IMG/VR virus record: IMGVR_UViG_3300042554_002381
Coordinates: 43,437-107,436 of that record
Length of the DNA stretch: 64,000 nt
Strand: one strand, 5' to 3'
From: a virus
Taxonomy: Duplodnaviria; Caudoviricetes
The position numbers and the translations under genes are program-made. Each line of letters opens with the position of its first letter. The stretch's first letter is position 1. The notes beneath the pieces were generated by a model, which searched no databases, was not told the origin of the DNA, and saw only the letters and a list, made by a program, of their open reading frames with translations. Positions 395-26,608 of this stretch are shown piece after piece.

Positions 395-3300
395 ATGGCT
401 GACAATGTTTTTAACTTTCTGGATGATAACACGCTTGGCGTTGAAGAAAACAATCCTACAGGCAAGGCACCTCAGACTGATGAGTTTTCTGTAGCGTTTC
501 AGAAACTTAACCAGCAAAGTGACTTTGAAAGACAGCAGGCATCACGCCCACAGTCTCTCACAGAGCGTTTCAATGCGCCTGTTGGTCCATCTACTTTTAC
601 ATACACCCCAGAACAGACAGTAGATCCTTATCGCTACCAGAAAGGTTTCCAGGGAGAGTTCTTTAACCCTCTGGACAGCACCAACTACCAAAAGTTTGCT
701 GACCGCGAAACGTTTGGTTCAGCCCTGAGTAAAGGCCTTGACAGTTTTGCTTACAAGTTTGGAAACACCTTTGTAGACTACTGGAAAGGATATGGACGTA
801 TGGCAGATGCACTGGTTCACATGGACTGGGACCGCATGAAGCCTGATGAAGAAACCCTTGCCACGCAGTACTATAAAGATCAGCTTGACATGAATCGCAA
901 CTTTGTGTTTGAGCAACCTGAAAACGAAGACAGCATTTTTTCTAAGCGCACTATGAGTGAGTTTATAGGCAATGCTGGTTTTGCTTTGGGAACCTTTGCA
1001 GGTCTTGGTATTGAAATTGCAGCAGATATTGCCATTACAGCTGCAACTGGAGGCGCAGGTGCTGTAAGTTTTGGCGCAACAGCTGCAAGGCTGGGCGCAA
1101 AACAAGCTGCTGCACAGACAGCAAAATCAGGATTTAGATTTGCAGATGCACTGACAGACGTAGGCAAAGGATTTTCTTATGGCAACAAGAGTGTAGATGA
1201 AATATCTGCAGCTGCAAAGGTTGCAGGAAAGATTGATGAAACAGCAGCCCTTGGTAACATGAGCCGCAGCGCATTGCGTGACTCAATGTCTGAGACGTTC
1301 ACTGTGTACTCTAATAATTTTTTCAACATTGCAAAGTCAAAGAACTTGGGAGAAGTTGCCACCAACCTGCTGAAAGGAACACCGCTGGTGGGTACTGGTG
1401 TACGCTATGGTGAAAAAATTGCCGCGGCCTCTAAAGCAGGAGCCTCTACAGGCCAAATGATTGGCATGGGACTGCAAGGACTGCGTCGTGTGGCGCAGGA
1501 ACTTAACATGGCAGGTACAGAGGCAAGTTTTGAAGCAGTGACCTCTTATGGTGATACGCTGGATAAAATGGTTAAGCAGTATCAGGTAGACAACGAGGGA
1601 GCTGTACCTACAGCCGAAGAGTTTGAAGAGATGAGAAGTCTTGCAATGCAGGCAAGTACCGCTAACTATAACACCAACCTGGGACTGCTTCTTGCTACCA
1701 ACAAACTTCAGTTTGGAAACTTGTTTAACAGGTTTATTCCTGCCAACAAGTTTATGACAGAAGCTGCAGAAAACGTAATGGTTATCAACTCTAAAGCTGG
1801 CCAAGCGCTAATTAACAAATCAGGTTTTTTTGGCAGCTATGGTGTACTTGGAAAGGTTGCCAGAGAGTTTGGTAAAAAAGAAGCTGCCTGGCAGTTCTCT
1901 AAAGCTTTTACTAAGGACTTTTTGAAGTTTGAAGTCTCAGAAGGTCTGCAAGAGAATCTTCAAGAAACATCTGCTACTGCATGGCGTGACTACTACGCCG
2001 GTCAATTCAATGGTTTAGAAACCTCACTGTCTGACGCTTTTGGAAAAGGTGTCAGTGAGCAGTTTACTAAGCAAGGTCTGAAAACGTTTCTGATGGGCGC
2101 GTTTACAGGATCACTGATTCGCGTGCCAACAGCGCTTGCTTCCAGTTCATTTGAAGCTGCTAATCGCGCACTTATTAACCGCGAGTATGCAAAGACTCCT
2201 GAACTTAACCCCTACAAGCGTGCAGAAGAACAGTTCAAAAAAGACCTTGAGATACAGAACGCACTTTTCAAGCAGGCCAAAGAAGGCAGCTTTAAAGAAA
2301 AGATCGTAAACTTTGTGGCACAGACTGATGCTGCTCAACAGCAGGCAGAAGCTGCAGCCAAAGGATTGCGCTATGAGTTTGAAAACGGTCGCGACAACGC
2401 ACTACTTGCAGCAGTAGCGTCTGCTCAAAGAACGAACTCAATAGGCATGTTGCAACGCGCTATCAAAGACATGGGTAAGGACATGACGGCAGAAGAATTT
2501 GAAAAGTCTTTTGGTGTCAAGTTAGAAGACACTAAATACAAATCTGCAAGCGAGTTCTCAGAATCTGTTGCTAGAGATGTTAAGAAATACTCAGACGTTA
2601 TTGAGGGCCTTCGCACTAAGTTCAAAAGCACCATGGCCAATCCTGCACAGTATGACAAAGGCAGCAGAGGCCAGTACGTTGCAACATTGATGCGCGGTGC
2701 GCAGGAAGAAGCCATACAGGTTCTTGCCCTTAACGCTATTAAGGGTGACATGTCAGCTAACAGAGCCAAACAGATTGCTGAAGAACTGATGTCTTCACCT
2801 GGGATTGGAACCAGTGCAGATTACGCATTGCGAGCACTCACTAGTGCTACATCACTGCAAGGTGAACTTAAATCTTTGTATGCAGAAATCAGGATTTTAG
2901 AAGAGCAGCTTAAAGCTGAAGGTCTTGATGCTGACACAAAAAACAGCATCAAAGAGCAACTTGACAGTAAGATTAAAGAAGAAAAACTGCTGTCAAAGTG
3001 GGCCAGTTACTGGGAGGTCAGAGACAGCATTATAGGATACGACAAGGAGAACAAACCTGTTAAAAGCAAGCAGATTGTAGATGTCTTTGTAGGAAAATCT
3101 ATTGACAAAACACAGACTGTCACAGATGAAAACGGCAATGAGGTTGAAACAGTAGACAGGACATTTGATCCTACTGACCCAGAGGTTGTAGAAACGTTTC
3201 GCCAGTTAATGAACATCAAAAACAAACAGGCAGGAAACAGCACTGATATTTCTGAAGAGGTCATGCGTGACAGCTTTCAGAAGATCTATGACTACATCCG

Positions 3301-4723
3301 CCTGGACCGCGACACCAAAGACTACATGCGCAGTGTTGATGTGCTCATGAACCCTGATAACTTCCGCCAAATGCAGGAGCGTATGGTAGATGGCAAGTTT
3401 AAGTTCAACCTGATTCTCTATGTTGACAAACTAGACGATGATTTATACAACAGGACTTTGGAGATTCTTAATGATCTGGCGCCTGGTGAACAAGATGCAG
3501 TAAACATAATTGAAGACTTAAGAAGCGCACTTGTTGACTCTGAGAACTATAAGAATTTGTTGGTAGTAATTACTAACCCTGATATAAGCATTGAGCAGGA
3601 AGACTATGCGTTTAAATTGTATGAAGATATTGTTCAGGACTTGCTTAAAAAAGAAGCAGAGATCAGAGTCAAGTATGCACCTAAAGAATACACAGATGAT
3701 ATCTCACAAGAGGACTATGACGAGATCATTGCTACTAAAGAGTTGGATCCTGTAATTAAGTATCTTATTGCAAACAAACTTTCACAAGGTATAGCGTTGT
3801 CTGAGCGTGAAGAAAAGGTTTACAATATTTATAAAGACGCAATAGACAAAGAAGTAGCACCTTCTGAAACACCTGTTACGTCTGGCACTACTGTAGATCC
3901 TGCAGAACAAACTCCTGCCCAGGAGTTACCACCTGTAATTACAGTTGGACCTGATGGTGAGGAGGTTATTGAGGAAACTCCCGCAATAGCAGCAACACCT
4001 TCGCAAACTTCTGAAACTTTTACAGACTCAGTGGACGATGCAAATCTTGCGTTTTTTGGAATGAGTCCACAGACTGCTGTCACAGAACAAGAGACAGCTT
4101 TAGAGCAAGAAACACCTTTTGCTGCCACCGGCACAGAAGAGCAGGGATACGACGTAGTAGATCGCAACAACAATGCAGTTAATCCTGAAAAAATCTCTAG
4201 TGCTGAACAAGCTGTAGAGCTTGCAGAGAGCATGAACACTACCAGGGCTGACCTGGATTTTGTGCAGAAGCTTATGGGCACTACAGACACAGCAATGGTC
4301 ACCAAAGCACTTGAGATATTTCAAAAGTCCATGGAGCAGTACAACAAGCGCAAGAAGACCGGTTTTACTACACTGGAAGAGTATTACAAAACTCCTGATG
4401 GTAAACGTTTGATAGATGCAAACAAAGAAGCATTGATCACAGGTAAACCTGTAAACTACAAGCAAAAGCCTGTGGCTGTGGCAGTTAGCCCTGTCACAAG
4501 CCAGGTCACATTGTTTGACTCACCAGCCACCGGAAACGTTGCAAGTTTAACTCTTTCAAGTTTAGAAAGTCTTCACGCTAAAGTCAAAGAATTTAGAGAG
4601 CAAGCTCTACAAGATCCAACTAAATTTAGTAAATTTGTAGAGACAGGAAATGTGCCATCTGCTCCCATCACAGAAGCTTCTATTCTTAACAAGCTTCAAG
4701 ACATTACTCGTTGCTTTTCATAA
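395..4723 (+). CDS. Large virion ejection (cargo) protein, 1442 aa
   Basis: Long helical ORF with a Gly/Ala-rich hydrophobic segment (GNAGFALGTFAGLGIEIAADIAITAATGGAG) and an EGLQENLQ motif typical of phage ejection proteins. It lies directly upstream of the vRNAP. Single Cys at residue 1440. Confidence 0.75.
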   Translation: MADNVFNFLDDNTLGVEENNPTGKAPQTDEFSVAFQKLNQQSDFERQQASRPQSLTERFNAPVGPSTFTYTPEQTVDPYRYQKGFQGEFFNPLDSTNYQKFADRETFGSALSKGLDSFAYKFGNTFVDYWKGYGRMADALVHMDWDRMKPDEETLATQYYKDQLDMNRNFVFEQPENEDSIFSKRTMSEFIGNAGFALGTFAGLGIEIAADIAITAATGGAGAVSFGATAARLGAKQAAAQTAKSGFRFADALTDVGKGFSYGNKSVDEISAAAKVAGKIDETAALGNMSRSALRDSMSETFTVYSNNFFNIAKSKNLGEVATNLLKGTPLVGTGVRYGEKIAAASKAGASTGQMIGMGLQGLRRVAQELNMAGTEASFEAVTSYGDTLDKMVKQYQVDNEGAVPTAEEFEEMRSLAMQASTANYNTNLGLLLATNKLQFGNLFNRFIPANKFMTEAAENVMVINSKAGQALINKSGFFGSYGVLGKVAREFGKKEAAWQFSKAFTKDFLKFEVSEGLQENLQETSATAWRDYYAGQFNGLETSLSDAFGKGVSEQFTKQGLKTFLMGAFTGSLIRVPTALASSSFEAANRALINREYAKTPELNPYKRAEEQFKKDLEIQNALFKQAKEGSFKEKIVNFVAQTDAAQQQAEAAAKGLRYEFENGRDNALLAAVASAQRTNSIGMLQRAIKDMGKDMTAEEFEKSFGVKLEDTKYKSASEFSESVARDVKKYSDVIEGLRTKFKSTMANPAQYDKGSRGQYVATLMRGAQEEAIQVLALNAIKGDMSANRAKQIAEELMSSPGIGTSADYALRALTSATSLQGELKSLYAEIRILEEQLKAEGLDADTKNSIKEQLDSKIKEEKLLSKWASYWEVRDSIIGYDKENKPVKSKQIVDVFVGKSIDKTQTVTDENGNEVETVDRTFDPTDPEVVETFRQLMNIKNKQAGNSTDISEEVMRDSFQKIYDYIRLDRDTKDYMRSVDVLMNPDNFRQMQERMVDGKFKFNLILYVDKLDDDLYNRTLEILNDLAPGEQDAVNIIEDLRSALVDSENYKNLLVVITNPDISIEQEDYAFKLYEDIVQDLLKKEAEIRVKYAPKEYTDDISQEDYDEIIATKELDPVIKYLIANKLSQGIALSEREEKVYNIYKDAIDKEVAPSETPVTSGTTVDPAEQTPAQELPPVITVGPDGEEVIEETPAIAATPSQTSETFTDSVDDANLAFFGMSPQTAVTEQETALEQETPFAATGTEEQGYDVVDRNNNAVNPEKISSAEQAVELAESMNTTRADLDFVQKLMGTTDTAMVTKALEIFQKSMEQYNKRKKTGFTTLEEYYKTPDGKRLIDANKEALITGKPVNYKQKPVAVAVSPVTSQVTLFDSPATGNVASLTLSSLESLHAKVKEFREQALQDPTKFSKFVETGNVPSAPITEASILNKLQDITRCFS
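4630..4637 (+). promoter_or_regulatory. Bacteroidota -7 promoter element TAAATTTG upstream of the vRNAP gene
   Basis: Matches TAnnTTTG, is followed by TAGA, and lies about 115 nt before the ATG at 4751. Confidence 0.4.
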
Positions 4724-4750
4724 GCACATTTCTTCTTTAACCCAACTATA

Positions 4751-7700
4751 ATGGCGTGTCAAATACAAACTGACAAGTACACTGGCATTGTTCTGGATCT
4801 GATAAGACTGGAGCCTACTGTATATAATAACTTTGACAATGCTGCTTCTTTTATTCTGAGAAGCGGGCTGACTCCAGAGCAGAAGATGCTCTCTGTGCAT
4901 AACCTGGCGCACATCTACGCAGGTCTTGCTGACTTGGACTCTTCCTACTATGAGAAAGGCAAGGCTGATCAGGTCAGCAGCATGATCGCTGCTACAGAAA
5001 ACCCTGAGGGATATGTAAAGATACTTTCAGAACTTTATGGTATATCCAAGCCTGCAGAACTCAAGCTGGACAGCATCACTAAAAAAATTGAGGCACTTGG
5101 TGGCAAAACAGTCATCAACCGCGCAGACTTGGTAGGCACCAATGGCATAGTAACCCTGATCAAAAACTACTTTGCTACCCACAGCTTTGCCAATCTGGAA
5201 GAAAGAACCCAGTTACTGGAGCAACTTTCAGCGGCACTGCGTCAGCAAATCATAGACAGTCAGATGCCTCAGGACAACAAAGATGGCCTTGAGTCTTTGA
5301 TAGGTGACATGTTTGCCAGTCTGGACAAGCGTTCAGACTTTATTCCTATTACTGAAATTGCGCAAGAAGCACAGCTTAGAAACATGCTGGTAACTCTTGC
5401 CAATGGAGAAATGGTAGAAGCTATCTCAGAAAACGAGGTGCTCTATATGATCAGTAACGACGGTTCACTTGAAGCTCTTTCTGAAGACCAGATTGTAAAC
5501 TTCAAGCAGTCGCGTCCCACAGACACTTTCCAGGGAAACTCCAGTGAGCATATTTTTTATGAGGACACCATTTTAAGCAGTCTGCGTGTAAAGCCTGTTA
5601 ATCCTGAGGATACAGCAGAAATATTTAAAGCACTCAATCATCCACAGCCTCTTACAATGGTGCGTATTCATGCTGTTAAAGTCAGCAGCGTGGGTGATCA
5701 GCGTGTGGAGCGTATCCAGAATTTGGCGCAGTCTGATCCAGCAATGGCAAAGCTCGCCAACAGGCAGCATGAAACTTTTGAAAACAAAGCGCAAACAGAA
5801 TATCTACTTTCTGAAAGCACTGGTAAAGTAGTGACCTTGTCACGTCCAAAAGCATCAGAGCAAAGCTTTGTGCTTGTAGGAAATATTATCGGCACAGACA
5901 AGAAGTTTTACCTGTACAGTAATGACAATCTTACATTTGTATCTTCTGACAACACTACTGAGCGGGTTGATTTCAACAACCCAGGGCACCTTGCAGAGTT
6001 AAAGCGCCTTAGTGTCAAAACAACCGGCGCAGAAAGAGTGGAGTTGACAGACCAGGATATTGAAACACTGCAGGATAGTGCCAAACACTACCAAGAGTTT
6101 GTGGCTTCTGTACAGGATGATTTGATGTCAGAATTTGCTGGCGGAAGAACCTCTGTGGACATTACAGAGCAGTTTGCTCAAGCGTATCAGATGCAGTCCA
6201 CACGGCCTTTTAAGACTCTCACACCTCTTGGTAAAAAACTTGAGTCCGACCCTTCACTGTACAAGCTGCTTACTATTGTCAACACAAAAACTGGGGCTAA
6301 AGAAGAGCGCCAGATACCGTTTTTGTACAATCGTGTTCAGGGGGTTCTAGCAAATTTTCAGCTGGTAGATGTCCTTGATAAAGATGAAAGAATAGAGCAT
6401 ACGCCACAGCCAGGTGCTGAACCAGTGCTTATGAACATGGATGATTATGCAAAAGAGGTGCTTGGTCTTAACTCTAACAGTGTTGAAAAGCTTTTAAAAT
6501 CTACAGACCAGCGTCAAATGAACGTGGTCATTAAGTTTAGAGAGGGTGCTGTTCCTACCTACAACATTGCAGAAAATGTGGCTACAATGTCACCGGTGGA
6601 AGAGTTTGCCAACTTTATTTTTGAGCTTGGCAGTGTATTGACCAACAGTACCAACAGAGGTACAGACGTGAAAAACTTTGATGTTTTTCAGTATGCTTTT
6701 AAACCTGCTACTAGTAAAGCAGTAGGCGACAAACCACTTTATGTTGCGTTTTCAACCACTATAAAAGGACAGCTGCAGTTTTGGATTAAGCCAGCCAAAA
6801 GAGATGGTCGTTATGGTTTTATGGAAGAAAACAAAAAACCTTACAACTTTTTGTTTGATGAGAAAATTATTACTACTACTGCAAAAGCACTTAGTGAAGG
6901 AAAGCTTGTAAAACAAATTCAGGAAAAGTTTCCTGAGCTTGCAAAGTTTGATCTTAGTAAACCTGAAGATCTTTACGAGTTTTACAGAACAATTACTGTC
7001 ATGAGCCGCAGAGGTTCTGTGGATGCACTAATTATAGATCTTGCCAATGCTGTCAAAGAAGCGCAAGAAAGGTTTTCTCAGCAAATCCGTGATCAGGTGC
7101 TAAACAAACTTGAGTCACAGACCAGTGAAGATACCAGATTCATGCAGAATCTTAGAGAGGATTTTACTTACAATGGTGTATTTAAGCCAGAGTTTTTGTT
7201 TTTTCGTGAAGAAAAAGATGGTAATGTTGTACCCAACATTTCTTTTTCACCAAGATACACTCCTAAAAATGGCATTAATGCACGCACGCGTTTTGCTTCT
7301 AATCTGAACAACTACATGCATGTGGATTCAGGTGCAAGACGCTTTGTCATTACTCCTAAAAATGATGTCAGCAACCTGAGTAGCATTCCTGCTCCTGCGC
7401 CAGCACCTGTAACAGTAGAATCCCCTGCGCAGATACATGTACAAAATCCTGTGCAACAACCTGTAGCACCCAGTACTATTGATATACCACGCATGCCCAT
7501 GTTTAGCATGATGGCAGGCAATGTAGAAACAGAAACAGATGCTGAACGTCTTAGCGCTGTTGCCTGGTTAAAGAAAACATACCCTCAGTTTCAGCTTTCA
7601 GAGTTTGACCTTTCTACACTGATTGAACTTTCCAGTCTGGATGGAACTGTACTGGGGATGTTCAAAGACCGTGTGATCTATCTCAACAACCAGATCAAAG

Positions 7701-10700
7701 GTAAAGGTACTGTTTACCATGAGGCCTTTCACGGTGTGTTCAGGTACCTGATGACAGATCCATATCGCGCAGGTCTTGTAGACTTAGTATCTGGAATGAA
7801 AGTCCATGCTTCTAAGTTTACAGAAGAGTCACTCAAAGAGTTTGCACGCAAGCGTAACTATGTCTATGACAAGACGCGCATGAAACAACTTCAGGCAGAA
7901 GAAATTCTTGCAGATGGTTTTCAAAAATATATGACAGACAACAAGAAACCTAAAGGTGTTCTTGGTGACCTGATGCAGTTGCTCAAGCGCTTGATTGAAA
8001 TGTTTACAGGCAAGAGCAATGAGATTGACAGACTGTACTCTCGCGTAAGCAGTGGTTACTACACAGGCTCTGTCATGGCTTCTGAAATATATGATGGTCA
8101 GGCAGCGTATGAGATCATTGAAGGTCTGGTTGAAATTGAAAATTTGCCTGGTGGTGTAGGAATTACAGACAGGATTGGCAGTCTTAATTCTGCAGAACAG
8201 CAAAATGAGCTGGTCAATATGGTGACTTATTACATGCTCAAAGGATACAATGACAAGCAGACGTTTGAGCAAAACTTTGACAGAATGGCTAAAGTTATTC
8301 TGGATAAAGAGTACAACCTTGACAGGCTTATTGCAAACCATCCTGAGAAACGTGATCAGATTCTTGAAGTTCTAGGTAATACCTGGAAGAACTACCGTTT
8401 CATGTTGGGTGCACGCATGCTGGGTGAAGTACTGCCTGACTTAAACAACACAGGCAATCCTGACTATGATAATCTGGTACGCCCTAACTCAGTAAAGCGC
8501 AATGACGGTGCAGGAGATAGCTTTGTAGACAACGCCAATGGTCAAGAGTCTAAAAAGACCCTGATGAAGCTTGTCAAAGCAAACTTTGAAAAGATTAATG
8601 CGCTTGTAGAAGGCAAGCCAGAACAAGAAGACACGCTTACAGCAGATAGAATTGACGAGCTCATTACAGATGAAAATCCTGCTGTTTACAATGAAGATGA
8701 TGAAACCGGTTCTAATGACCAAGAAACTGACTCTGCAGATTTTGACAGTGGATTGAATCAGTACAACAAACTTGAAGGAGTCAACAAAGAGATCAGAAGG
8801 TTTTTGGCACTGGTAAAGTATGACCGTGTAGATGAAAGACTGGGCATTACGCTGCCACGTCTTGTCAACGGCAATCAGATGTTTGGTGTACTTATGAGTG
8901 TTACATCAGACATAGAGGTAGATAACATTATTGACCACATTAAGGTTGTAGCAAAAACTGCACGCTATGATGGAAACAATTTGCTGGCCGATGATCTTGA
9001 CAACATTTACAGTAAGCTGCAAAAGCTTACAAACATTGACAGCAATGGTAGGCCTCAAAGCAATCAGCAGCTTTACAACATGATGATTGATGCGTTGGAT
9101 ACTACTGAGCTTGACTTTATAACTACTACAGTCTATACCAATAAAAAAACTGACCCATACTCTGGAGAGGACATGGGTACAAGCACAGGAAATTACACAA
9201 TCAAAGACCAGGTTTTGTTTCAGGACACCAATCTGCGCAAAACAAATATCATTACCTCCATTAAGACTAAGCATGCTTCTTCTGCAAAAGATGAAGCATA
9301 TCTTAAGGCTGCTAGAGATCTGTATGATCTGGCAAAGAACAAGATTTATGCTGGCAACTATATTTTAGACAGTGCTGGTTCTAACCAGGGTCAAAAGCTT
9401 GAAGAAATTTCTACTCAGTTGCACACTCTCATGGGAGAAGTTGGCATCAATGTACCCAAGTCTTTGATACGTCTGTCACTACTTGCTATAGATAAAATAC
9501 AGAACAATGTGGTGCACGACAATGCACAGTTTAGCCAGGATGTTTTGGATCACTACAACAATCATGAACAGATGATTGCTGAAGGGATCTATTTTGAAAA
9601 GGACTTCTTCTTAAGCATATCACAGATTCTTGAAGAGGCTGTAAAAAATACAAACAATCATGATGCTTTTGCAAGGTATATAACTAAAGACAAAAATGCA
9701 GAGTTACCAGTAGATCGTTTTAATGTAATTCTGCGCAGAGCAGCTGCCTACATTGTCAAGTATGACCCACAAGGTATACAGAGTACAGTTAAAGACTCAG
9801 AAAACAAGTCGCGTTACCGGTTTGTGAGTTACACGCCGGCGCTACGTCTGGCGCAAACTTTGAGAAGAAAAGGACTGGAGGAGACACTGAAAGAAGACCC
9901 TTACTTTGAACAGTACATAAACGACTGGTTCAAAGACAATCCAGCAATGGGGGTTCTACTTGATCCAAAAGGCAGTGCTACTGACAAAGCAAAGCAAGAA
10001 CTGTTCTTGCGCAACTTCCGCGTTGCCATGTTTGGTGGTGTTAACCAGGTGTTTGACGGCAAGTTCAAACCTGGTAAGAGTTTTAAAAACATTGACAGCA
10101 AGTCAATGTATATCACACACCTTCTTTCTTTTCTGAACAGAACCTCTCACAAACAAGTTGTTAAAGATGCTGAAGGAAAAGACACACTTGTTGAGATACA
10201 AACTTACCTGCGCAGTTTTTCACAGCTTGAGTCATCGCAGACTAACTTTTTGATTTCTGCAATGTACGAGCAGTATGCTGACAACACCGGCATGCTGGAA
10301 ACAAAAGATGGACACCTCAAGATTACAGACATACTTACAAATGCTGTGCGTCAGGAATACAATCGTATTCAGCGTGAGTACAACAAAAGACTTGAAAGAA
10401 AACAGGTCTTTGACGCAGGAGAAAAGCACAGTCTGATTTTGAAGTTTAACGCTACACATCAAAAAGACGATGTGACAAAGGCAGAAGTTAACAGCACAGA
10501 CTTGCGTGCATACAACTTTATTGGCAAGATACCAGATTTTTTTCAGGCAAACGCAGAACTGGTCACTAATGACACCAACACTGGTTTGCGCGATCTGGCT
10601 TTTGCAGGTACAAAGTTTGAAGAACTGCCTGAAGATGTAATGGTTACACTTCGTAACCAGTTGAACACCTATGCACAACAAGCGCTTCAAAAACATCTTG

Positions 10701-13700: not shown

Positions 13701-16384
13701 TACCTTCTGCATTGGGCATGAACGAAGAAAACGTAGGCACCACGCTTGTAATGATAGGACTGGGTCTTTCGCCTACGTTTGCAGTTGGGTTTAACTTCCT
13801 ACCAGAAGTAAAAAACGCTGTTGAAGCAGTCCAGGCTACTAAGTACGCCATCAGCAGTTCTGATGTCAACAGTTCAAAGTTTTTACATCAAGAAGTCAAA
13901 AATCAGATTGCAAAACTGGTAAAAGAAAATCCTGGTGTTCTTGAAGAATTGAAAAACGCTGGTGTTGTTTCTCCTCTTTCTAAGTCTTATGATATTGCAC
14001 TGAGAAAAGAAAATATTGCACTTAGCTTTAAGGCTCAAAAACTAGATGCCGCCAAGGTTAATAGCAATACTCTCACTTCTAAAGAAATTGGGTATGATGT
14101 CAAAGCTGTAAACAATGACACCAACACAGTTGAAAATTTAAGCGAAGATGCTCAGCGCATCGTTCTTCTCAGCTACTATGCAAGTCAGGCGCAACAGCAA
14201 TTTAATGTTCAGAGAGCAGGAAGCATTCTGAACACGTTTAAGAAACTAAACCCCAGGTTTGTAACTTTTGACAAGCTACTTAAAAACATGACTGATCTTG
14301 CTGAAGACGGCGAGAACAGCATTTTTACAAGTGAGTCTGTAAGCAAAATCTTTGAAGATGACCAGGTGTTCAAGTATCTTTTTGAGGCCATGCAAGATTT
14401 GAATGAGCAGTCTTCTAAGTTGTTTCTGGAAAGAACAAGCTTTTTTGTACCGGTCAAGCAGCTGTTTGAGGAGGTCTTTGAAGACAAGAGCACCATTGCA
14501 AAGATGATCACCAGCTATATTGCTCTTCGTCAGTACCAGCGTTTGATGCCAGGATCCAGAACAACGGGCGTTGAGGCTATAGACAACCTGCTTGCACAGG
14601 ATGATCAAAACCTGCGTGATACATTTAAAGCAGAATATTTTTTTACTAACAATTTAAAGGACGAAGTAGAACAGATGCTGCAGAAGTATCCTGACAACAA
14701 GTTCTTACAGTTATTGGTCAGTGAAAATGGCGACGCTGCTGCTTTTACAGAAAAAGGCGTAAAGATCACAGAAAGAGGTCTTAAACTGGTCACTAAAGCA
14801 AACATTTCAGGTAGCTACGCATCTAATGTAACAGACGACGCATACGCGCTTATGATCAAAGAAAACCTTTTTGCCAAAAAGCTTTTCTATTACGAGCTTG
14901 CCAAAACAGGTCTCATGTACAAGTCAGGTTCGTTCTTGCAACTTCTTCCTACAGAGATGATGCGACCTTTCTCTCCTTACATCAATGACTTTGTAAAAGC
15001 GCTTGAGAATGCAAAGGGTAATCCTGTAAAACTGATGAGTGCTGTAAAAAGCATCTTAGGTAATGAAGCCACAGACGCAGACGTGTACAACTTCTTTGAC
15101 GAGGTCTTCATGCTCATGGCCAATGCAGCCAGCCAGGAGGCAAACAACAACAAGATCAGGATTGCAAGACAATTCTCTTTTGCAAAAGACAAAAGCTTCA
15201 TGCAGTCTTTTAGGTTTTCTGAAACAACCACTGAGAAAACAGAGCGTCTTGCTATTGTAAGCAGTGCTCTGATGCACTTCATGGGTCAAACATCTAAAGA
15301 CGCGACAAAAGGTTACACGCCTACAAGTAGAAACGCAGCCAATGAGGTGATAAGTGAAATTACACTTGATATGTCAAAGCCTGCGTCAATTCCCGAGGTC
15401 AATGAAAACACAATGACTGAAATAGGGAAAAACTTTGGCATAAGACCTGTATTTGGCAAACCTGGCGTTTACAAGTTTCCTTTGATGTTCAAGATTGACA
15501 GCAGACAAGGAAGTGTCACATACTTACTGCAAGGTGTAGGTGAACAGGTAGCGTATCAGAACTTTGGTGAGAGTATGTTCAGGTCTATTACAGGCACTGG
15601 CGCGTCCAGTGTAGAAGGCAACATTGCCAAGTACAAGGCTATCCCAGCAGTTGTATCTACTGGACTTATGTCACCTATAGGTATGCCTAAGCAAGAGATT
15701 GAGAAGTACGTTGCTTACACAACTAACAAAGCAAAGCTTCCTGCTGTTGCTGCACCGGCACCTGTCGCAACACCTGCTCAACCCGCACCAACTCCTGCAG
15801 CACAAGCCGCGCAGGAAGACATGACTGGTACGCAGGATGCTACAGACATGCTTCTCAGCATGATGCCAGCAACACCTGTAGAACAACAGACAGAAGCAGC
15901 TATTGAACCAGGTCAATTTGTCAAGTTCAACAACGAGACTTTCATAGTGACTAAGATAAACAGTAATGGTACCGTGCAGGTTTACAATCCCACTTTAGAG
16001 GGCCCTGCTTCTAAAAAGTCAGTGTCTGCTTCTAACCTTACAGCGATTCCTGGCAGTAAAGCACTCCTGGTAGACTACAAAGGCTCTCAGTATCTGGTGA
16101 CACCTAAGAACACGATTATCTCTATGACCACCAACAAAGCCATGCAATGGCAAGAGAACAACGGCGACCGTGTTGCAGTACTTGAACTAGCTTCTCAGAA
16201 CAAAAATGTGACTATGGACATGAACAATCTGAACCTCACACAACCGGTTGTTGACTATCTTTACAACCAGTCTAGCAAGCGTCTTTCTAAAGACAACTTT
16301 AGACAAGCTGCTGCTGCAATGATTGCAAACCTCAGAGCTTCTACCCCAACAGATCAGATCCTGGAAAAAATCAAGTGCCTATAA
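4751..16384 (+). CDS. Virion-packaged DNA-dependent RNA polymerase (crAss/phi14:2 gp66-like) with zincin protease domain, 3877 aa
   Basis: Catalytic loop AGSDFDVD (12845-12859) preceded by the TRIP motif. HEAFH (7718-7732) with downstream EEILAD zincin signature. Size and gene context match crAss-like phages. Confidence 0.9.
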   Translation: MACQIQTDKYTGIVLDLIRLEPTVYNNFDNAASFILRSGLTPEQKMLSVHNLAHIYAGLADLDSSYYEKGKADQVSSMIAATENPEGYVKILSELYGISKPAELKLDSITKKIEALGGKTVINRADLVGTNGIVTLIKNYFATHSFANLEERTQLLEQLSAALRQQIIDSQMPQDNKDGLESLIGDMFASLDKRSDFIPITEIAQEAQLRNMLVTLANGEMVEAISENEVLYMISNDGSLEALSEDQIVNFKQSRPTDTFQGNSSEHIFYEDTILSSLRVKPVNPEDTAEIFKALNHPQPLTMVRIHAVKVSSVGDQRVERIQNLAQSDPAMAKLANRQHETFENKAQTEYLLSESTGKVVTLSRPKASEQSFVLVGNIIGTDKKFYLYSNDNLTFVSSDNTTERVDFNNPGHLAELKRLSVKTTGAERVELTDQDIETLQDSAKHYQEFVASVQDDLMSEFAGGRTSVDITEQFAQAYQMQSTRPFKTLTPLGKKLESDPSLYKLLTIVNTKTGAKEERQIPFLYNRVQGVLANFQLVDVLDKDERIEHTPQPGAEPVLMNMDDYAKEVLGLNSNSVEKLLKSTDQRQMNVVIKFREGAVPTYNIAENVATMSPVEEFANFIFELGSVLTNSTNRGTDVKNFDVFQYAFKPATSKAVGDKPLYVAFSTTIKGQLQFWIKPAKRDGRYGFMEENKKPYNFLFDEKIITTTAKALSEGKLVKQIQEKFPELAKFDLSKPEDLYEFYRTITVMSRRGSVDALIIDLANAVKEAQERFSQQIRDQVLNKLESQTSEDTRFMQNLREDFTYNGVFKPEFLFFREEKDGNVVPNISFSPRYTPKNGINARTRFASNLNNYMHVDSGARRFVITPKNDVSNLSSIPAPAPAPVTVESPAQIHVQNPVQQPVAPSTIDIPRMPMFSMMAGNVETETDAERLSAVAWLKKTYPQFQLSEFDLSTLIELSSLDGTVLGMFKDRVIYLNNQIKGKGTVYHEAFHGVFRYLMTDPYRAGLVDLVSGMKVHASKFTEESLKEFARKRNYVYDKTRMKQLQAEEILADGFQKYMTDNKKPKGVLGDLMQLLKRLIEMFTGKSNEIDRLYSRVSSGYYTGSVMASEIYDGQAAYEIIEGLVEIENLPGGVGITDRIGSLNSAEQQNELVNMVTYYMLKGYNDKQTFEQNFDRMAKVILDKEYNLDRLIANHPEKRDQILEVLGNTWKNYRFMLGARMLGEVLPDLNNTGNPDYDNLVRPNSVKRNDGAGDSFVDNANGQESKKTLMKLVKANFEKINALVEGKPEQEDTLTADRIDELITDENPAVYNEDDETGSNDQETDSADFDSGLNQYNKLEGVNKEIRRFLALVKYDRVDERLGITLPRLVNGNQMFGVLMSVTSDIEVDNIIDHIKVVAKTARYDGNNLLADDLDNIYSKLQKLTNIDSNGRPQSNQQLYNMMIDALDTTELDFITTTVYTNKKTDPYSGEDMGTSTGNYTIKDQVLFQDTNLRKTNIITSIKTKHASSAKDEAYLKAARDLYDLAKNKIYAGNYILDSAGSNQGQKLEEISTQLHTLMGEVGINVPKSLIRLSLLAIDKIQNNVVHDNAQFSQDVLDHYNNHEQMIAEGIYFEKDFFLSISQILEEAVKNTNNHDAFARYITKDKNAELPVDRFNVILRRAAAYIVKYDPQGIQSTVKDSENKSRYRFVSYTPALRLAQTLRRKGLEETLKEDPYFEQYINDWFKDNPAMGVLLDPKGSATDKAKQELFLRNFRVAMFGGVNQVFDGKFKPGKSFKNIDSKSMYITHLLSFLNRTSHKQVVKDAEGKDTLVEIQTYLRSFSQLESSQTNFLISAMYEQYADNTGMLETKDGHLKITDILTNAVRQEYNRIQREYNKRLERKQVFDAGEKHSLILKFNATHQKDDVTKAEVNSTDLRAYNFIGKIPDFFQANAELVTNDTNTGLRDLAFAGTKFEELPEDVMVTLRNQLNTYAQQALQKHLDRLVELEVLKKDSQPTRTAAGAAFVQKGTDGTITKYTSNLIAPTLIVDGKKEGNVLENKYYKTPKNYGEKLKNTEIPSDEIPAPVEIPAQENMEGFVADAFFNFWANSLTVNDLLDGDSAMNVKDPSDYFKRQKKQLAAGSTPKRGDHKVAYINTIKAFIHETYPMYGPYYNADEILGDERLSENLRDILIADFAKAQSGVKERITDPSTGIERTIKYGDMMREVFDGQSFSTLMHQMDMHDAMGRLSAEAAELMIAKHYRKLTADEISLLERNNIVNNSKKTVTSTRNAYHKQSEVHIDRNDVSVFVIPEEVLVSPERKREYIKKAQDTIHMLYAEVYSLRDAAKEAKIAGLDPAPFMTQIKVNMQEIHKYYKPIPSRKILHDLLNAMEFHQIDHLMDTTASKNATLLPVDIFTESQKLTEGSYINLEMSSMAVDNRYKFLQVETSGVKDTAKFSVQAKALIAADLLNIAEIMRASGRDIAESEQKSMEKVATILRTYQRTLKDVGESNLVNLKTILRKDGDFEVGKIFTLIRTSLESQGAPVNTLKLFDLNVDGTPVHSPNLPGIRNMLEYYFFSQYSKHITDEKRSGFKSIHMSSFGYDLMTDMDGNIIRSEDYRRNSARYPNVKTRPLGVSVETNPDGTKTYFVEVIVPKPQFRNKEHEEFYMKQLTKMFATRIPTEDKRSMIVLKVVDFIDSANLNGIIVPHFVHLLAGSDFDVDSLYGQTLAHYFNADDKPVLYGDYSAYSSEDAGRYTEFVEYMSKDDDVSMLVKSELSKIEALGENYTPSDNAKTLVGYTAERLSEDVDTLKNYDAVLAAFEKLGLPVTLENFLANPKYKKVTRPAFQNANLRSMMDILSNEAVFNYLYINERSSVQAFEDIAEEFGRDVKQMGGGYNHLSIDGVVTTKNISGVYKSGIGIAANINKFVALASQFGLELNSQNVIWQFQNAVEKGKTETGETEYDLTLRKYTNFGTLSEENQRVIASIGNILGMFADGMKKPIPSALGMNEENVGTTLVMIGLGLSPTFAVGFNFLPEVKNAVEAVQATKYAISSSDVNSSKFLHQEVKNQIAKLVKENPGVLEELKNAGVVSPLSKSYDIALRKENIALSFKAQKLDAAKVNSNTLTSKEIGYDVKAVNNDTNTVENLSEDAQRIVLLSYYASQAQQQFNVQRAGSILNTFKKLNPRFVTFDKLLKNMTDLAEDGENSIFTSESVSKIFEDDQVFKYLFEAMQDLNEQSSKLFLERTSFFVPVKQLFEEVFEDKSTIAKMITSYIALRQYQRLMPGSRTTGVEAIDNLLAQDDQNLRDTFKAEYFFTNNLKDEVEQMLQKYPDNKFLQLLVSENGDAAAFTEKGVKITERGLKLVTKANISGSYASNVTDDAYALMIKENLFAKKLFYYELAKTGLMYKSGSFLQLLPTEMMRPFSPYINDFVKALENAKGNPVKLMSAVKSILGNEATDADVYNFFDEVFMLMANAASQEANNNKIRIARQFSFAKDKSFMQSFRFSETTTEKTERLAIVSSALMHFMGQTSKDATKGYTPTSRNAANEVISEITLDMSKPASIPEVNENTMTEIGKNFGIRPVFGKPGVYKFPLMFKIDSRQGSVTYLLQGVGEQVAYQNFGESMFRSITGTGASSVEGNIAKYKAIPAVVSTGLMSPIGMPKQEIEKYVAYTTNKAKLPAVAAPAPVATPAQPAPTPAAQAAQEDMTGTQDATDMLLSMMPATPVEQQTEAAIEPGQFVKFNNETFIVTKINSNGTVQVYNPTLEGPASKKSVSASNLTAIPGSKALLVDYKGSQYLVTPKNTIISMTTNKAMQWQENNGDRVAVLELASQNKNVTMDMNNLNLTQPVVDYLYNQSSKRLSKDNFRQAAAAMIANLRASTPTDQILEKIKCL

Positions 16385-16387
16385 TCT

Positions 16388-19300
16388 ATGAACACATGTC
16401 CTAATCCCAACAGTCCTGAGTGGAAGCGTCTTGTTGATGCTTTAGGTGAAGGTAACGCTATGACGGCTTACACCCTGAACAACAATGAGACACCTGATGT
16501 TTATGACGCACAAAGGCTTTTGGCTGGTCTGAAAGCTGAAGAAAAAGATGAGCAGATTAGCAAAAGCTCAGATGAGTTTAAGCTGGAGCGTGCCAAAGCT
16601 CAACTGACAATGCTTCAGCGTGCCAGGTTTAATGCGAAACCTTTGCAAAGAGTGACGCTTGACAAGCTTATGGAAATGAACATGCGGCAACAGGAGTTTT
16701 TGCGTGAGAACATTCAACTGGTTAAAAACGGCATGCCTCCCAAAAAGACGGTCAGTGTTTCAAACTTTATTGGTGCCTCTGACTTCAAAGGAGATCCTTC
16801 TAAGTATGAAGCGTTCAAACTGTTTGGTACGTTTATGCACGAAGCTTTAGAGCTTGCACAGGTAGAAAGTCTTACATCTGGTGTTGCCATTTATGATGTA
16901 ATGACACAAGAGTTCTTTGACAACGCGCTAAAGAACTACAAAGAAAAGTATCCTTTCAATATTGATAACCTCACTGAACAAGCCATGTTTGAAATGGCGC
17001 GGGGTCTTGCTATGCACATTACAGTCTTTAATGACAAAGGCTTTATGATTCTGCCAGAGGTTACTATTACAGGTACCACAAAGACAGGCAGCATGGTGGT
17101 GGGTCGTCTTGACTTGCTCTTGATTGACTCTCAAGGACGTGTAAACGTGTTTGACTTTAAGACCAAGAAGGTTAAGCGCCTTATGGAAACAAACCCAGAT
17201 GGCACAAGGTCTATAAACGTAGACGGTGCACTGGTTCATCTTGCAGAAAAGACCTTTACTGTAGACAACAAACCTGGTACAGAGGCAGCATTCAAAGGCA
17301 CCAACCGGTCAGCCTATGACACCTGGACTTTGCAATTGAAGGTCTATGAAAACATGCTGATACAAAATGGCCTGGAGGTCAATGATCAAAGCATTGTGGC
17401 ACTGATGTATGAGACAGACGATGATGGCAAGTTTGAAGGTGCCGCCATACATGTCTTTGATGAGAAGTACTACTACGACTATGCAAAAGGCGCCAATGTT
17501 CCCAACAACAACGGGTATTGGAAAACAGAACCCACTTTTGGCTATCAGAAACTTGATTCTTTCAGAAAAACTGTAGATCAGCAGATTCCTATTTCTGAAG
17601 AAGCTCAGGCAGAATCAAAAAGAAAAGCTCTCATCAGCGATCTTAAAATCACCAAAGAACAGAACACTGCCCTGAAGACCAAGATACAGGGTGCCATTAC
17701 CACAGAGCTTAACGATACACTGATACAGATTGAAAAACTCAAAAGAGAGGGTAATGACACAGTGTTGCTGGCAGCACTTGAAACCCGTCGCAGTACACTG
17801 CGCACCTACCAGGATATTGTAGGTAAAGTGACAGACGACAGTGAGCTATCTTTTGCGTATAATTTCTCCAATCTTTTGGACACAGTTGAGCGTGACGTTC
17901 TCAGGCTAAGCAACCTTGCAGACAACGCAATGAAAAACTTTAAGCTGTCTCCTGACCTGGCGGTCAGTAAAGAAGGACAGGAAATATTGAGGATCTATCA
18001 GATGAGCAACTCTCTTGGTCTGGTCTTTGATCTTTTACAAGACACCATTACTGAAGCGCGTAAAAATACTGAAAACGCTTTTGTCGTAAGTGAGTTGATT
18101 GATGATAGATTCACTGCTATCCATGGAGCACTTAACAATATTGAAGCAGCATTTTCATATACTGCCTTGCACAATGCTGTGCAGGTTTTGAAAGTTCCAG
18201 GAGAAAAGATATTTACCAACGTAAACACAGAACTCAAGGAAGTTCTTGAGCTTGAAATAAAAAAGCTTGAGGAGCAGCTTAAAAAACTGGAAGAAGGCAA
18301 GTCAGCATCAGTTCTGAAAGCTTTTAAACACAACGCGCTGATGTTTATGGACAGCTCTTACAAAAAGCGTGTGGCTGAGAAACTTTCACAAAATGGTTTA
18401 GAACCAGGTGTACTGGTTCAGATGGAAAACTTGCAACGCCAGATCCTGCAGAAAAAAGCACTGCTGGAGAGCGGATACATGTTCAATGATGAGTTTTTGA
18501 AAAAGTACATTGAAGGCATCAGAGATCCTAATGCTCAGAACTATGCAGGCCGTCAGGGTACTTTCTCTGGCTCAGGGTTTTTCCGTAACACATATATGGA
18601 CCAGTTTATTTCTTCTGCGTCCAACTCTGAACTGGCGATCAGTGCGTTCACCATTATGCTCAAGAATGCAGAAGCTGAGGCGCGTCTTGCTATTCAGAAC
18701 AACTTTGCGTCTATGCAGTTTGACCAGAAGCGTGACGCACTTTTACAACGATACACTGTAGAGGAGCTTAATGACCTGATGTCTGAGTATCGCGACCACA
18801 CGTTTTTGAACAGCAACGGTGAGCTAGAAACAGTACGCCGTCTTTACATGAGCGCACCTTATACAGAAGCCTATAAAAACACGTTCAAAGAGTACAACCT
18901 TAAGTTGCAGATTTTCAGAAAAGAGATGTCCAATCTCAAAGCTGAAAGCCACAAGAAAGCTAACACGCCGGAGGGTCCTGCAGCCAAGCAGGTTTACCTG
19001 GACAAGGTTGCGGAGTATGAGCAGTACAAAGACCAGTACTTGCAATGGATGATAGACAACGCACAGCTTCCTTATACAGAAGCTTTTTACTCTTTGCAGA
19101 AAGCCTTGCCTCAGTCTATCCGCGAGGAGTTGCAGAAACGCTACTTTGAAATGGAGACCATTGTCTATGACGTAGGTAAAGGCAATGAAATACTTCTGGA
19201 AGAGTACGACTTTGAGCGTATTCAAGAACTTGAACAGGAGATCAGAACCCTGCGCCAACAGGCTAAAGAAATGAGCCCTGAGTACGCGCAGTACATGGAC

Positions 19301-22300: not shown

Positions 22301-22414
22301 GAGAAAGGTGACCCTAAGATCGCCAAGGATTTCATGGATCTTACAGGTCTGAAGAACTTCCGCGACTTGGCAGATCCCAACTACAGAATTGACATAATGA
22401 AACGCAACCAATAG
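16388..22414 (+). CDS. Large virion ejection protein with N-terminal PD-(D/E)xK nuclease domain, 2008 aa
   Basis: GTFMH...E...GRLDLL...FDFKT...QLKVY is a RecB/Cas4-like motif set. Long coiled coils and a C-terminal hydrophobic helix (AIVMAILTMVSMMALMYV) follow. Confidence 0.8.
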   Translation: MNTCPNPNSPEWKRLVDALGEGNAMTAYTLNNNETPDVYDAQRLLAGLKAEEKDEQISKSSDEFKLERAKAQLTMLQRARFNAKPLQRVTLDKLMEMNMRQQEFLRENIQLVKNGMPPKKTVSVSNFIGASDFKGDPSKYEAFKLFGTFMHEALELAQVESLTSGVAIYDVMTQEFFDNALKNYKEKYPFNIDNLTEQAMFEMARGLAMHITVFNDKGFMILPEVTITGTTKTGSMVVGRLDLLLIDSQGRVNVFDFKTKKVKRLMETNPDGTRSINVDGALVHLAEKTFTVDNKPGTEAAFKGTNRSAYDTWTLQLKVYENMLIQNGLEVNDQSIVALMYETDDDGKFEGAAIHVFDEKYYYDYAKGANVPNNNGYWKTEPTFGYQKLDSFRKTVDQQIPISEEAQAESKRKALISDLKITKEQNTALKTKIQGAITTELNDTLIQIEKLKREGNDTVLLAALETRRSTLRTYQDIVGKVTDDSELSFAYNFSNLLDTVERDVLRLSNLADNAMKNFKLSPDLAVSKEGQEILRIYQMSNSLGLVFDLLQDTITEARKNTENAFVVSELIDDRFTAIHGALNNIEAAFSYTALHNAVQVLKVPGEKIFTNVNTELKEVLELEIKKLEEQLKKLEEGKSASVLKAFKHNALMFMDSSYKKRVAEKLSQNGLEPGVLVQMENLQRQILQKKALLESGYMFNDEFLKKYIEGIRDPNAQNYAGRQGTFSGSGFFRNTYMDQFISSASNSELAISAFTIMLKNAEAEARLAIQNNFASMQFDQKRDALLQRYTVEELNDLMSEYRDHTFLNSNGELETVRRLYMSAPYTEAYKNTFKEYNLKLQIFRKEMSNLKAESHKKANTPEGPAAKQVYLDKVAEYEQYKDQYLQWMIDNAQLPYTEAFYSLQKALPQSIREELQKRYFEMETIVYDVGKGNEILLEEYDFERIQELEQEIRTLRQQAKEMSPEYAQYMDQLNDLYEYDVNINFYERMRDSAMVRYKDSHPELWEKWQKTNEVQRPTKRPELPKELTRGTNVMYQDQIWTVVTERAAGSVDLVNEDGETVVAMREDLQMLNWHEQLGLLYEAKAAIAGSDPEIQELMEERRAILRQYKVGGRLQPKFMSEDHVTRLDEIAGLIEEIMLEKRNTGMLDIQQKAQLVQISNEIKKISEKRLAQGYLDTFDEKLKILYAAQREMITAENDLATATTKADKKEIDAAQTALSKAEANFSKKEKEFRTWYNLHHNNKYQSVSTGYDVRQNALPKSYNFENLPVESLYSLYMETVPHPKYKIKRIKESAKNPDFLQSPEGIPMPKAVMQNSNGQYVIRPGFESSPNISDKYRKLMADPELFSFYNDTMTMYFDIQQKVEGRKMGYLVPGFTASTVENIARKGLVGSLNNEYQKFVENTWRTHSKIDQVDGIYGDLNGKLRHRFTEQLPEELQTRDAIGAIMKYTVEAQHNIAMQKVAPAVEQYIAYFELQLTELRKEVGTGKKFTTESGVQVNMEERVKELEEMLSILNFEKRKFLYGQSKSAAAGDRAINKKLNSALAYSSFIRIGFDLVNQTKNYISGNVQAFIAAGGLASDQYSRKDYMWAKSKVYGYGGFLHNYFADFGKIGDVSESTMLYRFFNPAQKDFLGYMNEVTGGRKRKVASHLTSIQELGFMFQDKGDTEIAVTVMYAVMNNNRYRVIAGKDAQGNPIYQKDANGEDVMIPVHEIYYKDSTGQLQRRQDVEYDQQDENRVRNIIYSEMRRTQGNYAKADQTKLEESPLGTLIMFFRKYLVPQLLNRFGFLRPNWEAGEAALGYWSAVGIVFRNYGPGYAMKHWIRGSKHMSKTNQNQLGQLLSRKMDQAGRDAIVMAILTMVSMMALMYVRKKNDEDEELSFLEGNAIRILWGVKGEATSMFPVGGGSQEYIKNFTTAVPLVREFMALQRLGSHAFYYGQAMLINGGQEPDPMYDSEYYQEIWKDAFYSRKSGVYEKGDPKIAKDFMDLTGLKNFRDLADPNYRIDIMKRNQ

Positions 22415-22445
22415 ACAAATTTTTTTTCATTATGCAGAACTCTTG

Positions 22446-22469
22446 ACAAAATTTACTATATTATTATTG
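22446..22469 (+). promoter_or_regulatory. Candidate late-operon promoter ACAAAAT-N4-TATATTATTA
   Basis: The same motif with the same spacing occurs upstream of the lysis operon (36167-36190). Confidence 0.4.
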
Positions 22470-22526
22470 ACCACTACAAGTATTCAACTTATTTTATCTA
22501 ACTCTATCTTTTAAAGTACCATAATT

Positions 22527-23807: not shown

Positions 23808-23840
23808 GCATAATAAACGCTAAACCAACAGCATTATATT

Positions 23841-24410: not shown

Positions 24411-24452
24411 ACAATTTCAACTTTTAACCCAACCCCTTAAAAATACTTACCC

Positions 24453-26300: not shown

Positions 26301-26356
26301 TTTAGATTAAATTTTTTTACAGAAATAACTTAGTAATAACTGCAAAACCATAAAGC

Positions 26357-26599: not shown

Positions 26600-26608
26600 A
26601 CAGAACTA

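Follow-up and report, generated by a model that had tools for sequence, protein, structure and literature searches.

Paired terminal cysteines at the gene breaks of giant crAss-like phage cargo proteins and a disulfide chain they may form

How a phage passes ~700 kDa to 1 MDa of protein, including an RNA polymerase (RNAP), through a narrow tail is an open problem, and the locus described here raises it in a particular form: why would three giant proteins that are almost free of cysteine keep this residue only where the end of one protein faces the start of the next? The locus lies in a stretch of 64,000 nucleotides (positions 43,437 to 107,436) of the IMG/VR virus record IMGVR_UViG_3300042554_002381 (Caudoviricetes), the whole of which is referred to here as the window. 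It comprises three consecutive plus-strand open reading frames (ORFs) encoding proteins A, B, and C, which, judged by their homologues, are probably internal cargo proteins of a crAss-like phage that are packed and injected.

Terminal cysteines in the trio and its relatives

An earlier note on the window had counted four cysteines in the 1442 + 3877 + 2008 residues of the trio, and a recount of the 7,327 residues returned exactly those four: A-1440, B-3, B-3876, and C-4 (Table 1). Its description of the outer ends as free of cysteine also held, with none at the N-terminus of A or at the C-terminus of C. The chance that four randomly placed cysteines among 7,327 positions would each fall no more than 4 residues from one of the facing ends is ~2e-12. 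Cysteine content was 0.055% in the trio, 0.25% in the six downstream plus-strand ORFs, and 1.16% (78 of 6,748 residues) in the minus-strand ORFs of the window; at the minus-strand rate, ~85 cysteines would be expected in the trio.

The same placement is found across homologues of each protein. A large protein database yielded 93 homologues of C, 54 of B, and 193 of A; for A, the 120 best were examined. A cysteine stands in the last three residues (at -2 or -3) of 119 of the best 120 of 193 A homologues, at residue 3 or 4 of 53 of 54 B homologues, in the last four residues of all 53 full-length B homologues, and at residues 2 to 8 of 91 of 93 C homologues. All misses are truncated proteins: the single miss at the start of B and both misses in C are truncated at the N-terminus, and the 54th B homologue, P0126 (2652 residues), is shortened and carries a cysteine at -4 that represents an internal substitution, although it was counted in a 54/54 tally. 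At the outer ends, by comparison, cysteine was absent from the first ten residues of A (0/120 of the best 120 of 193) and from the last ten of C (0/93). Internal cysteines were lacking altogether in 117 of the best 120 of 193 A homologues, 39 of 54 B homologues, and 58 of 93 C homologues. Conservation of the terminal cysteines reaches down to 25 to 40% identity. In alignments from which near-duplicates and truncated proteins (P0002, P0025, P0093, P0121, P0126, P0170, and others) were excluded, the four cysteine columns are invariant at a mean column identity of 29 to 44%, with C1440 of A invariant in 63 sequences, C3 and C3876 of B in 50, and C4 of C in 67. The earlier note had asked whether orthologous trios carry their terminal cysteines as matched C-terminal and N-terminal pairs, and essentially every orthologue does.

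Pairing was also followed along single contigs in IMG/VR scans that covered 48 loci for the B|C junction and 80 loci for the A|B junction, at 20% to 98% identity to the window. Both cysteines were present at 44 of 44 evaluable B|C junctions (4 of the 48 loci being cut by contig ends) and at 73 of 73 evaluable A|B junctions (7 of 80 being cut); a seeming exception at the A|B junction of locus L137 is a start codon called too early. Over all IMG/VR loci, 131 junctions carry a cysteine pair, encoded by 212 TGT and 50 TGC codons, and the decapeptides flanking the terminal cysteines occur in 81 and 74 distinct forms. Because both codons are used and the flanking peptides differ widely, selection appears to act on the cysteine residue itself. 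A coupling or reinitiation signal at the nucleotide level that merely happens to encode cysteine was ruled out by the use of both codons, by intergenic gaps ranging from overlap to 32 nucleotides, and by partners lying on opposite strands.

Neither the genes after C nor the cysteine-free protein before A carried a terminal cysteine in the loci of the relatives, so that a chain built from these pairs would have defined ends. The protein encoded upstream of A, of which the window holds the C-terminal part, is ~870 to 1135 residues long in most relatives, usually begins M-A-T-F/Y, and is almost always free of cysteine; no cysteine lay within 12 residues of either end of this ORF in 78 of the 78 loci that list it. 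It resembles another ejected cargo protein, one outside the chain.

Cargo proteins and their gene breaks

By homology, B is a distant crAss-type virion RNAP. Its tblastn matches comprised 34 phage records, all of them crAss-like, with annotated crAss RNAP subunits at 23 to 29% identity in two patches, and its DFDVD and HEAFH motifs are invariant in 50 aligned homologues; a DFDxD motif has been named for the polymerase of phage phi14:2 (preprint 10.1101/2020.03.07.982082). Residues 937 to 1107 of B match the zincin region of crAss001 gp47 (residues 2103 to 2293; E 1e-9). Profile comparison with hhalign aligned residues 179 to 893 of the A family with residues 171 to 836 of the gp47 group (probability 90.4%, E 1.4e-6), whereas against seven gp45-type proteins of Intestiviridae the A family gave no significant match (probability 0.8%). 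On this profile evidence, drawn from the Steigviridae group alone, A is homologous to the N-terminal portion of gp47-type proteins. From the zincin match and the A-profile match together, it follows that A plus approximately the first 1,150 residues of B would be the counterpart of gp47, and the remainder of B the polymerase.

C is a distant and weak relative of crAss001 gp49 and phi14:2 gp076. Near its N-terminus lies a nuclease domain assigned to Pfam PF12705 (PDDEXK_1; E 6.8e-6, 26.6 bits versus a cut-off of 22), in which D242, D256, and K258 are invariant, and this predicted nuclease may be injected together with the polymerase. Mass spectrometry has placed crAss001 gp47, gp49, and gp50 in the virion (PMC10172136), and the notes to the phi14:2 sequence records report the same for the homologues in that phage. 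PHROGs offered no family for A, B, or C, and Pfam only PDDEXK_1 in C. Megablast of window positions 1 to 25000 against the phage collection gave no match, and protein matches in that collection were only patchy, with no cultured member of the clade among its entries. Genome contigs searched with the A alignment yielded no relative. The clade is seen only on metagenome contigs, and the phage could not be placed in a named Crassvirales family.

In the window clade, the gp47-type protein is broken ~940 residues before the zincin motif, and the classical joint between gp47 and the polymerase is fused; the zincin region was found in the ORF after the A homologue at 35 loci and in an A-like ORF at none. 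Named phages break the same cargo at other places, and the cargo block was surveyed in 21 named crAss-like records and one cyanophage, Leptolyngbya phage Lbo-JY46. All 25 split junctions in this survey carry a cysteine pair. At the break before the polymerase, after the zincin domain, as found in Steigviridae and Intestiviridae, the pair is present in 12 of 12 crAss-like records: p-crAssphage (gp45|gp44), Rudgehvirus, cr107_1, cr271_1, crAss002, cr11_1, cr8_1, ctbg_1, crAss001 (gp47|gp50), cr116_1, phi14:2, and DAC15. At the break after the polymerase, between the RNAP and the gp49-type protein, it is likewise present in 12 of 12 records: crAss001 (gp50|gp49), cr116_1, phi14:2, DAC15, Fpv1, and seven Suoliviridae. 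Record ctcc615 was left out of the upstream-junction count, its upstream gene spanning the origin of the record. In crAss001 and DAC15 the upstream partner and the remaining two genes lie on opposite strands, yet the cysteines are still present, so the pairing is not an effect of gene adjacency. Lineages with a single junction hold exactly the two cysteines of that junction, namely the upstream pair only in Intestiviridae and the downstream pair only in Suoliviridae and Fpv1.

Three observations on individual records adjoin these counts. Lbo-JY46 is a cultured cyanophage of 125 kb outside the named crAss families; its 1552-residue A homologue (25% identity) ends in its sole cysteine, and in the protein that follows, of 2748 residues, the sole cysteine is residue 4 (locus 19371-32277). 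The annotated start of crAss002 gp33 (16077-28814) appears to be 32 codons too early; moving it downstream by that number, by length comparison with gp41 of cr107_1, makes Met33 the start and gives M-S-C, like the cr107_1 orthologue. In the Suoliviridae cr109_1, cr52_1, cr60_1, and cr7_1, the late genes contain 6 to 148 in-frame table-11 stops per protein, which suggests that stop codons are recoded; the terminal cysteine pattern is kept in these four despite the stops.

Where two of the cargo parts are fused, the joints that were mapped lack cysteine. Intestiviridae fuse the polymerase to the gp49-type part, with a joint that BLAST places at ~2420-2640 of Rudgehvirus RNAPcat and p-crAssphage gp44; no cysteine lies at the fused joint of these two proteins, and 0 of 9 fused Intestiviridae polymerases has a cysteine within 70 residues of the C-terminus. 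In Suoliviridae and Fpv1, the gp47-type part is fused to the polymerase; an N-terminal cysteine occurs in 0 of 8 of these proteins, and three mapped fusion joints of the Suoliviridae type, coarsely bracketed by BLAST, contain none. The expectation in the earlier note that the cysteines would vanish upon fusion was thus borne out at the equivalent joints that could be mapped, and the outer ends of the fused proteins also lack them (0/17).

The reverse case, in which a new break comes with new cysteines, is provided by several sublineages that break B again at approximately residue 3820 (corresponding to about position 16205 of the window) and insert a variable protein, here called X, of 149, 193 to 195, 326, 644, 665, or 744 residues. 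Every X has exactly two cysteines, one at position 3 or 5 and one at -2, and the shortened B, too, terminates in a cysteine. The C-terminal 55 to 65 residues of X align to residues 3814 to 3877 of B, and its N-terminal parts are without a counterpart in B; six X proteins compared with Pfam matched no family. Some B homologues carry precomputed Pfam matches to PF18760, PF00075, PF25176, and PF08719. Together with the X proteins, these suggest that B may be open to added cargo domains.

A control in the other direction comes from cr116_1, whose polymerase gene is split (14089-14931) by a group I intron that contains a homing-endonuclease-like gene, gp050; Rfam RF00028 matches both halves of the intron (E 4e-6 and 9e-7, below the gathering score). 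Here the downstream exon starts without a cysteine, and the cysteine that ends the upstream ORF lies within the intron. The two polymerase exons are annotated as separate proteins, gp051 and gp049. Because the fusions, the breaks made by X, and the intron control all agree, the pairs follow real breaks between proteins, at no fewer than four places.

Table 1. Coordinates of the cargo trio in the window and of related features in other records
Record	Feature	Position	Strand	Remarks
Window	Upstream cargo-like protein, C-terminal 128 residues	2..388	+	Translation free of cysteine; outside the proposed chain
Window	Protein A, 1442 residues	395..4723	+	Sole cysteine is residue 1440
Window	Cysteine codon TGC of A, residue 1440, third from the C-terminal end (...DITRCFS*)	4712..4714	+	
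Window	Protein B, 3877 residues	4751..16384	+	Cysteine only at residues 3 and 3876; predicted zincin-bearing part and two-barrel RNAP
Window	Cysteine codon TGT of B, residue 3 (MAC...)	4757..4759	+	
Window	Zincin-type HEAFH motif, B 990-994	7718..7732	+	H990, E991, F993, and H994 invariant
Window	RNA polymerase catalytic motif DFDVD, B 2699-2703	12845..12859	+	D2699, F2700, D2701, and D2703 invariant
Window	Connector module, last 59 residues of B (3819-3877)	16205..16381	+	Adjoins C even in relatives with a split B
Window	Cysteine codon TGC of B, residue 3876, second from the C-terminus (...KIKCL*)	16376..16378	+	
Window	Protein C, 2008 residues	16388..22414	+	Sole cysteine is residue 4
Window	Cysteine codon TGT of C, residue 4 (MNTC..., CPN motif)	16397..16399	+	
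Window	Predicted PD-(D/E)XK nuclease domain, C 142-263	16811..17176	+	Pfam PF12705
Relative L035	Protein X	9418-9999		
Relative L045	Protein X	9487-9936		
Relative L051	Protein X	8056-9990		
Relative L055	Protein X	7756-9990		
Relative L057	Protein X	8002-9999		
Relative L058	Protein X	9034-10014		
p-crAssphage	gp47	5189-7762		Orphan C-terminal cysteine
crAss002	gp30	5382-7055		Orphan C-terminal cysteine
cr107_1	gp38	4713-7091		Orphan C-terminal cysteine
Rudgehvirus	gene49	5005-7278		Orphan C-terminal cysteine

A disulfide chain and its alternatives

From the placement and pairing of the cysteines we infer a bond, a time at which it would form, and a purpose. In the mechanism favored here, internal cysteines would have been purged from A, B, and C and one retained within a few residues of each end that faces a neighbor; in the oxidized virion, the C-terminal cysteine of A would bond to Cys3 of B and the C-terminal cysteine of B to Cys4 of C. 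The product would be an unbranched chain of 7,327 residues, in effect a polyprotein with disulfides in place of peptide bonds, and because its links lie at the chain ends it would stay linear and could pass a narrow tail channel or keep the order of a packed core. On reaching the reducing cytoplasm of the host, the links would open and free the subunits. Candidate purposes are an ordered or coupled ejection thread, a staple of the packed core, one-to-one delivery of the proteins, and a redox release of a self-inhibited polymerase. A disulfide is plausibly the simplest chemistry that needs one cysteine on each of two facing ends, and we put the probability that head-to-tail disulfides make A, B, and C one chain in the oxidized virion at roughly 0.65.

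Structure prediction was brought to bear on the ends themselves. The earlier note had described a similar helix at both C-termini; single-sequence AlphaFold2 models of the last 100 residues do place a helix before each cysteine, at residues 1427 to 1439 of A (mean predicted local distance difference test [pLDDT] 43.8) and 3867 to 3876 of B (50.7), and the likeness between the two helices was weakly checked. It had also suggested co-folding the facing termini. Residues 1 to 135 of C co-folded with residues 3780 to 3877 of B gave an ipSAE of 0.39 versus 0.01 for the best of three controls, with runs sharing at least 63% of their contacts and a partner pLDDT of at least 60, which lends the B|C contact weak support. 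Among 80 solved complexes, 58 reach the mark applied to co-folds, as do 2 among 110 mismatched pairs; passing scores of 0.60 or under come from only 7 of the 80 solved complexes and from both passing mismatches.

Several points weigh against the disulfide chain. The evidence for the bond is all comparative, the co-fold of B with C passed weakly at its ipSAE of 0.39, and the terminal helices stem from low-confidence models. The peptides that flank the cysteines vary across families and so offer no evident common docking site. Gut crassviruses live in the absence of oxygen. The cytoplasm in which virions assemble is reducing, so only a disulfide formed inside the procapsid could guide co-packaging, and the disulfides described for crAss001 come from laboratory-handled virions (PMC10172136). 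Gut relatives also tolerate internal cysteines, with 4 to 17 in the fused RNAPs and one, at residue 1334, in crAss001 gp50. Finally, some Intestiviridae cargo proteins have a sole C-terminal cysteine with no obvious N-terminal partner (Table 1). This orphan cysteine lies 2 to 11 residues from the C-terminus, often in the context C-G-G-K-K-K, and the next protein has no N-terminal cysteine.

These orphans also speak for the alternative that survives best, in which the terminal cysteines do form disulfides and find their partners elsewhere, in homodimers (A with A, C with C, or B chains with each other) or in the portal, the inner face of the capsid, or other cargo. The crAss001 paper gives 6 copies of each cargo protein as an example of what the capsid can hold (PMC10172136), and because several copies of each may be packed, homotypic links are allowed by counting, which is a further point against a strictly head-to-tail chain. 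A homodimer held by a 47-47 disulfide is moreover described for crAss001 gp57 in the same paper. Left unexplained, however, are the appearance of two cysteines at once with each new break, one per new end, and the cysteine-free outer ends (0/120 among the best 120 of 193 A homologues, 0/93 for C, and 0/17 for fused proteins). Lineages with one junction also hold exactly its two cysteines, and in phage A4 the same signature is a heterotypic bond (PMC12002296). We therefore regard partners other than the facing end as unlikely.

A second alternative is that the cysteines serve no cross-link at all and act as a packaging or processing signal, as a redox sensor that activates the polymerase, or as the remnant of protein splicing. 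The sensor has some appeal in that the phi14:2 polymerase crystallized in a self-inhibited form, with no explanation so far of how it is activated (preprint 10.1101/2020.03.07.982082), but a sensor predicts no pairs at every break. A signal would be expected to conserve the residues around it, and only the cysteine is universal. Splicing leaves too little room, the terminal cysteines being only 1 to 9 residues from the ends. Such roles are quite improbable on this evidence. A functional split intein at the junctions, which needs ~100 residues of N-terminal intein part (IntN) after the first cysteine and ~35 residues of C-terminal part (IntC) before the +1 cysteine, was ruled out outright, the cysteines being 2 or 3 residues from the C-termini and residues 3 or 4 of the N-termini.

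Third, as the earlier note had offered, a metal ion (zinc, iron, or copper) might sit between the facing cysteines in place of a direct bond. A histidine two residues before the C-terminal cysteine in some lineages (...DIHACF, ...MIHCIKS, ...MKHCKGE) would suit such a site. One cysteine per end nonetheless gives each site just two thiolates, the freely varying flanks contain no other conserved ligand, and the sole solved case of the signature is a disulfide (PMC12002296), which makes a metal bridge very improbable. Chance or functionless inheritance, for which the general cysteine poverty of ejected proteins known for Schitoviridae could be cited (PMC11445570), can practically be dismissed in view of the ~2e-12 for the window, the invariance of four cysteine columns at 29 to 44% mean column identity with both synonymous codons in use, and the recurrence of pairs at no fewer than four different break points.

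Given disulfides between the proteins, other pairings (A with C and a circularized B, or the C-terminus of A with the C-terminus of B) were ruled out as a general scheme, because in Intestiviridae the upstream pair occurs alone, as does the downstream pair in Suoliviridae and Fpv1. The head-to-tail chain can in turn be extended into a general device for joining proteins, which, taken jointly in all of the following parts, we offer as tentative and rather doubtful. Cysteine pairs would let proteins enter the chain: an N-terminal cysteine head plus a connector of ~58 residues ending in cysteine would permit insertion at the level of the gene, co-packing, and co-injection. The hypervariable X proteins would then be swappable payloads between the polymerase and C, with the domains matching PF18760, PF00075, PF25176, and PF08719 as further payloads. 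The whole crAss-like order, as well as unrelated podophages such as A4, would eject ~1 MDa of protein as one disulfide-stitched thread.

Comparison with known systems

The closest precedent is the unrelated cyanopodophage A4 (Anabaena phage A-4L; PNAS 2025), and it qualifies the statement in the earlier note that such a link had not been described. Electron cryomicroscopy of A4 found Cys1715 of gp27, which ends a C-terminal helix seated in a gp26 cleft, disulfide bonded to Cys5 of gp26 inside the capsid, and its authors present the bond as a local stabilizer or staple of the packed core (PMC12002296). In the sequence record of Anabaena phage A-4L, Cys1715 is the sole cysteine of gp27 (1717 residues) and Cys5 that of gp26 (1114 residues). 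As in the trio of the window, where the signature was recognized from sequence alone, a near-sole cysteine thus stands at the C-terminus of the upstream and at the N-terminus of the next of two adjacent giant internal proteins. In contrast to the trio, A4 as described in that account has one link between two proteins, in a T7-like core without an RNA polymerase, and no rule is drawn there. No homology of A, B, or C to gp27 or gp26 was found by BLAST (E >0.1) or, for the A family against gp27, by hhalign (probability 0.3%). For crAss-like phages the statement of the earlier note stands, as a literature search turned up no account of terminal cysteines or of disulfides in the cargo. Searching the phi14:2 preprint for the words cysteine, Cys, and disulfide gave nothing, and in the main text of the crAss001 paper (PMC10172136) they gave nothing on these cargo proteins.

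Within the crAss-like phages, phi14:2 gp65-gp66-gp67 (GenBank gp078, gp077, and gp076; polymerase structure PDB 6VR4) and crAss001 gp47-gp50-gp49 form a homologous cargo module with the same cysteine pattern. Phi14:2 repeats the window, with 4 cysteines in 5,398 residues: residue 1797 of 1797 in gp078, residues 3 and 2179 of 2180 in gp077, and residue 3 of 1421 in gp076. In crAss001, cysteines are found at -3 in gp47, at 5, 1334, and -9 in gp50, and at 5 in gp49. Unlike in the window, where the break lies before the zincin domain, both phages break after it, and identity to the window proteins is only 21 to 33% over patches. The phi14:2 polymerase was purified and crystallized alone, with dithiothreitol (DTT) and tris(2-carboxyethyl)phosphine (TCEP) (preprint 10.1101/2020.03.07.982082).

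Schitoviridae resemble the window in having a giant virion RNA polymerase and ejection proteins with suppressed cysteine. Their virion polymerase is a T7-like single-subunit enzyme, and B has the DFDxD two-barrel motif instead. Their ejection proteins (N4 gp50 and DEV gp71-gp73) avoid cysteine, which has been ascribed to passage through the periplasm, and gp71 homologues hold 0.00075% cysteine (PMC11445570). Suppression there is total and without terminal pairs, whereas the trio keeps four invariant terminal cysteines. Disulfides between separately encoded proteins are in themselves familiar from crAss001, whose tail and portal vertex contain many between subunits (PMC10172136). Those bonds differ from the proposed ones in joining folded structural proteins at internal positions and not the ends of cargo.

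The working principle of the proposed chain also resembles that of two-chain AB toxins, in which an interchain disulfide spans the break, keeps the two chains joined while they pass a narrow channel, and is then reduced in the cytosol. The chains of AB toxins come from nicking one polypeptide, and their cysteines sit within a loop; the two systems share neither homology nor biology.

Set against these systems, a cysteine pair flanking every break between giant cargo genes amounts to a concrete and directly testable hypothesis, and cultured systems that carry the signature are at hand in phi14:2, crAss001, DAC15, and Leptolyngbya phage Lbo-JY46. The rule is relevant to how ejection is ordered and coupled and to the occurrence of these genes in both fused and split forms, and it may explain how cargo is added; it would also help annotators to choose start codons correctly and to distinguish introns from genuine gene breaks. 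That such a signature can be a real bond is seen in the A4 structure (PMC12002296). What is new here is the chain of at least three proteins, including an RNA polymerase, as a proposal, and a rule that extends across a phage group, for a principle that has its solved precedent in A4.

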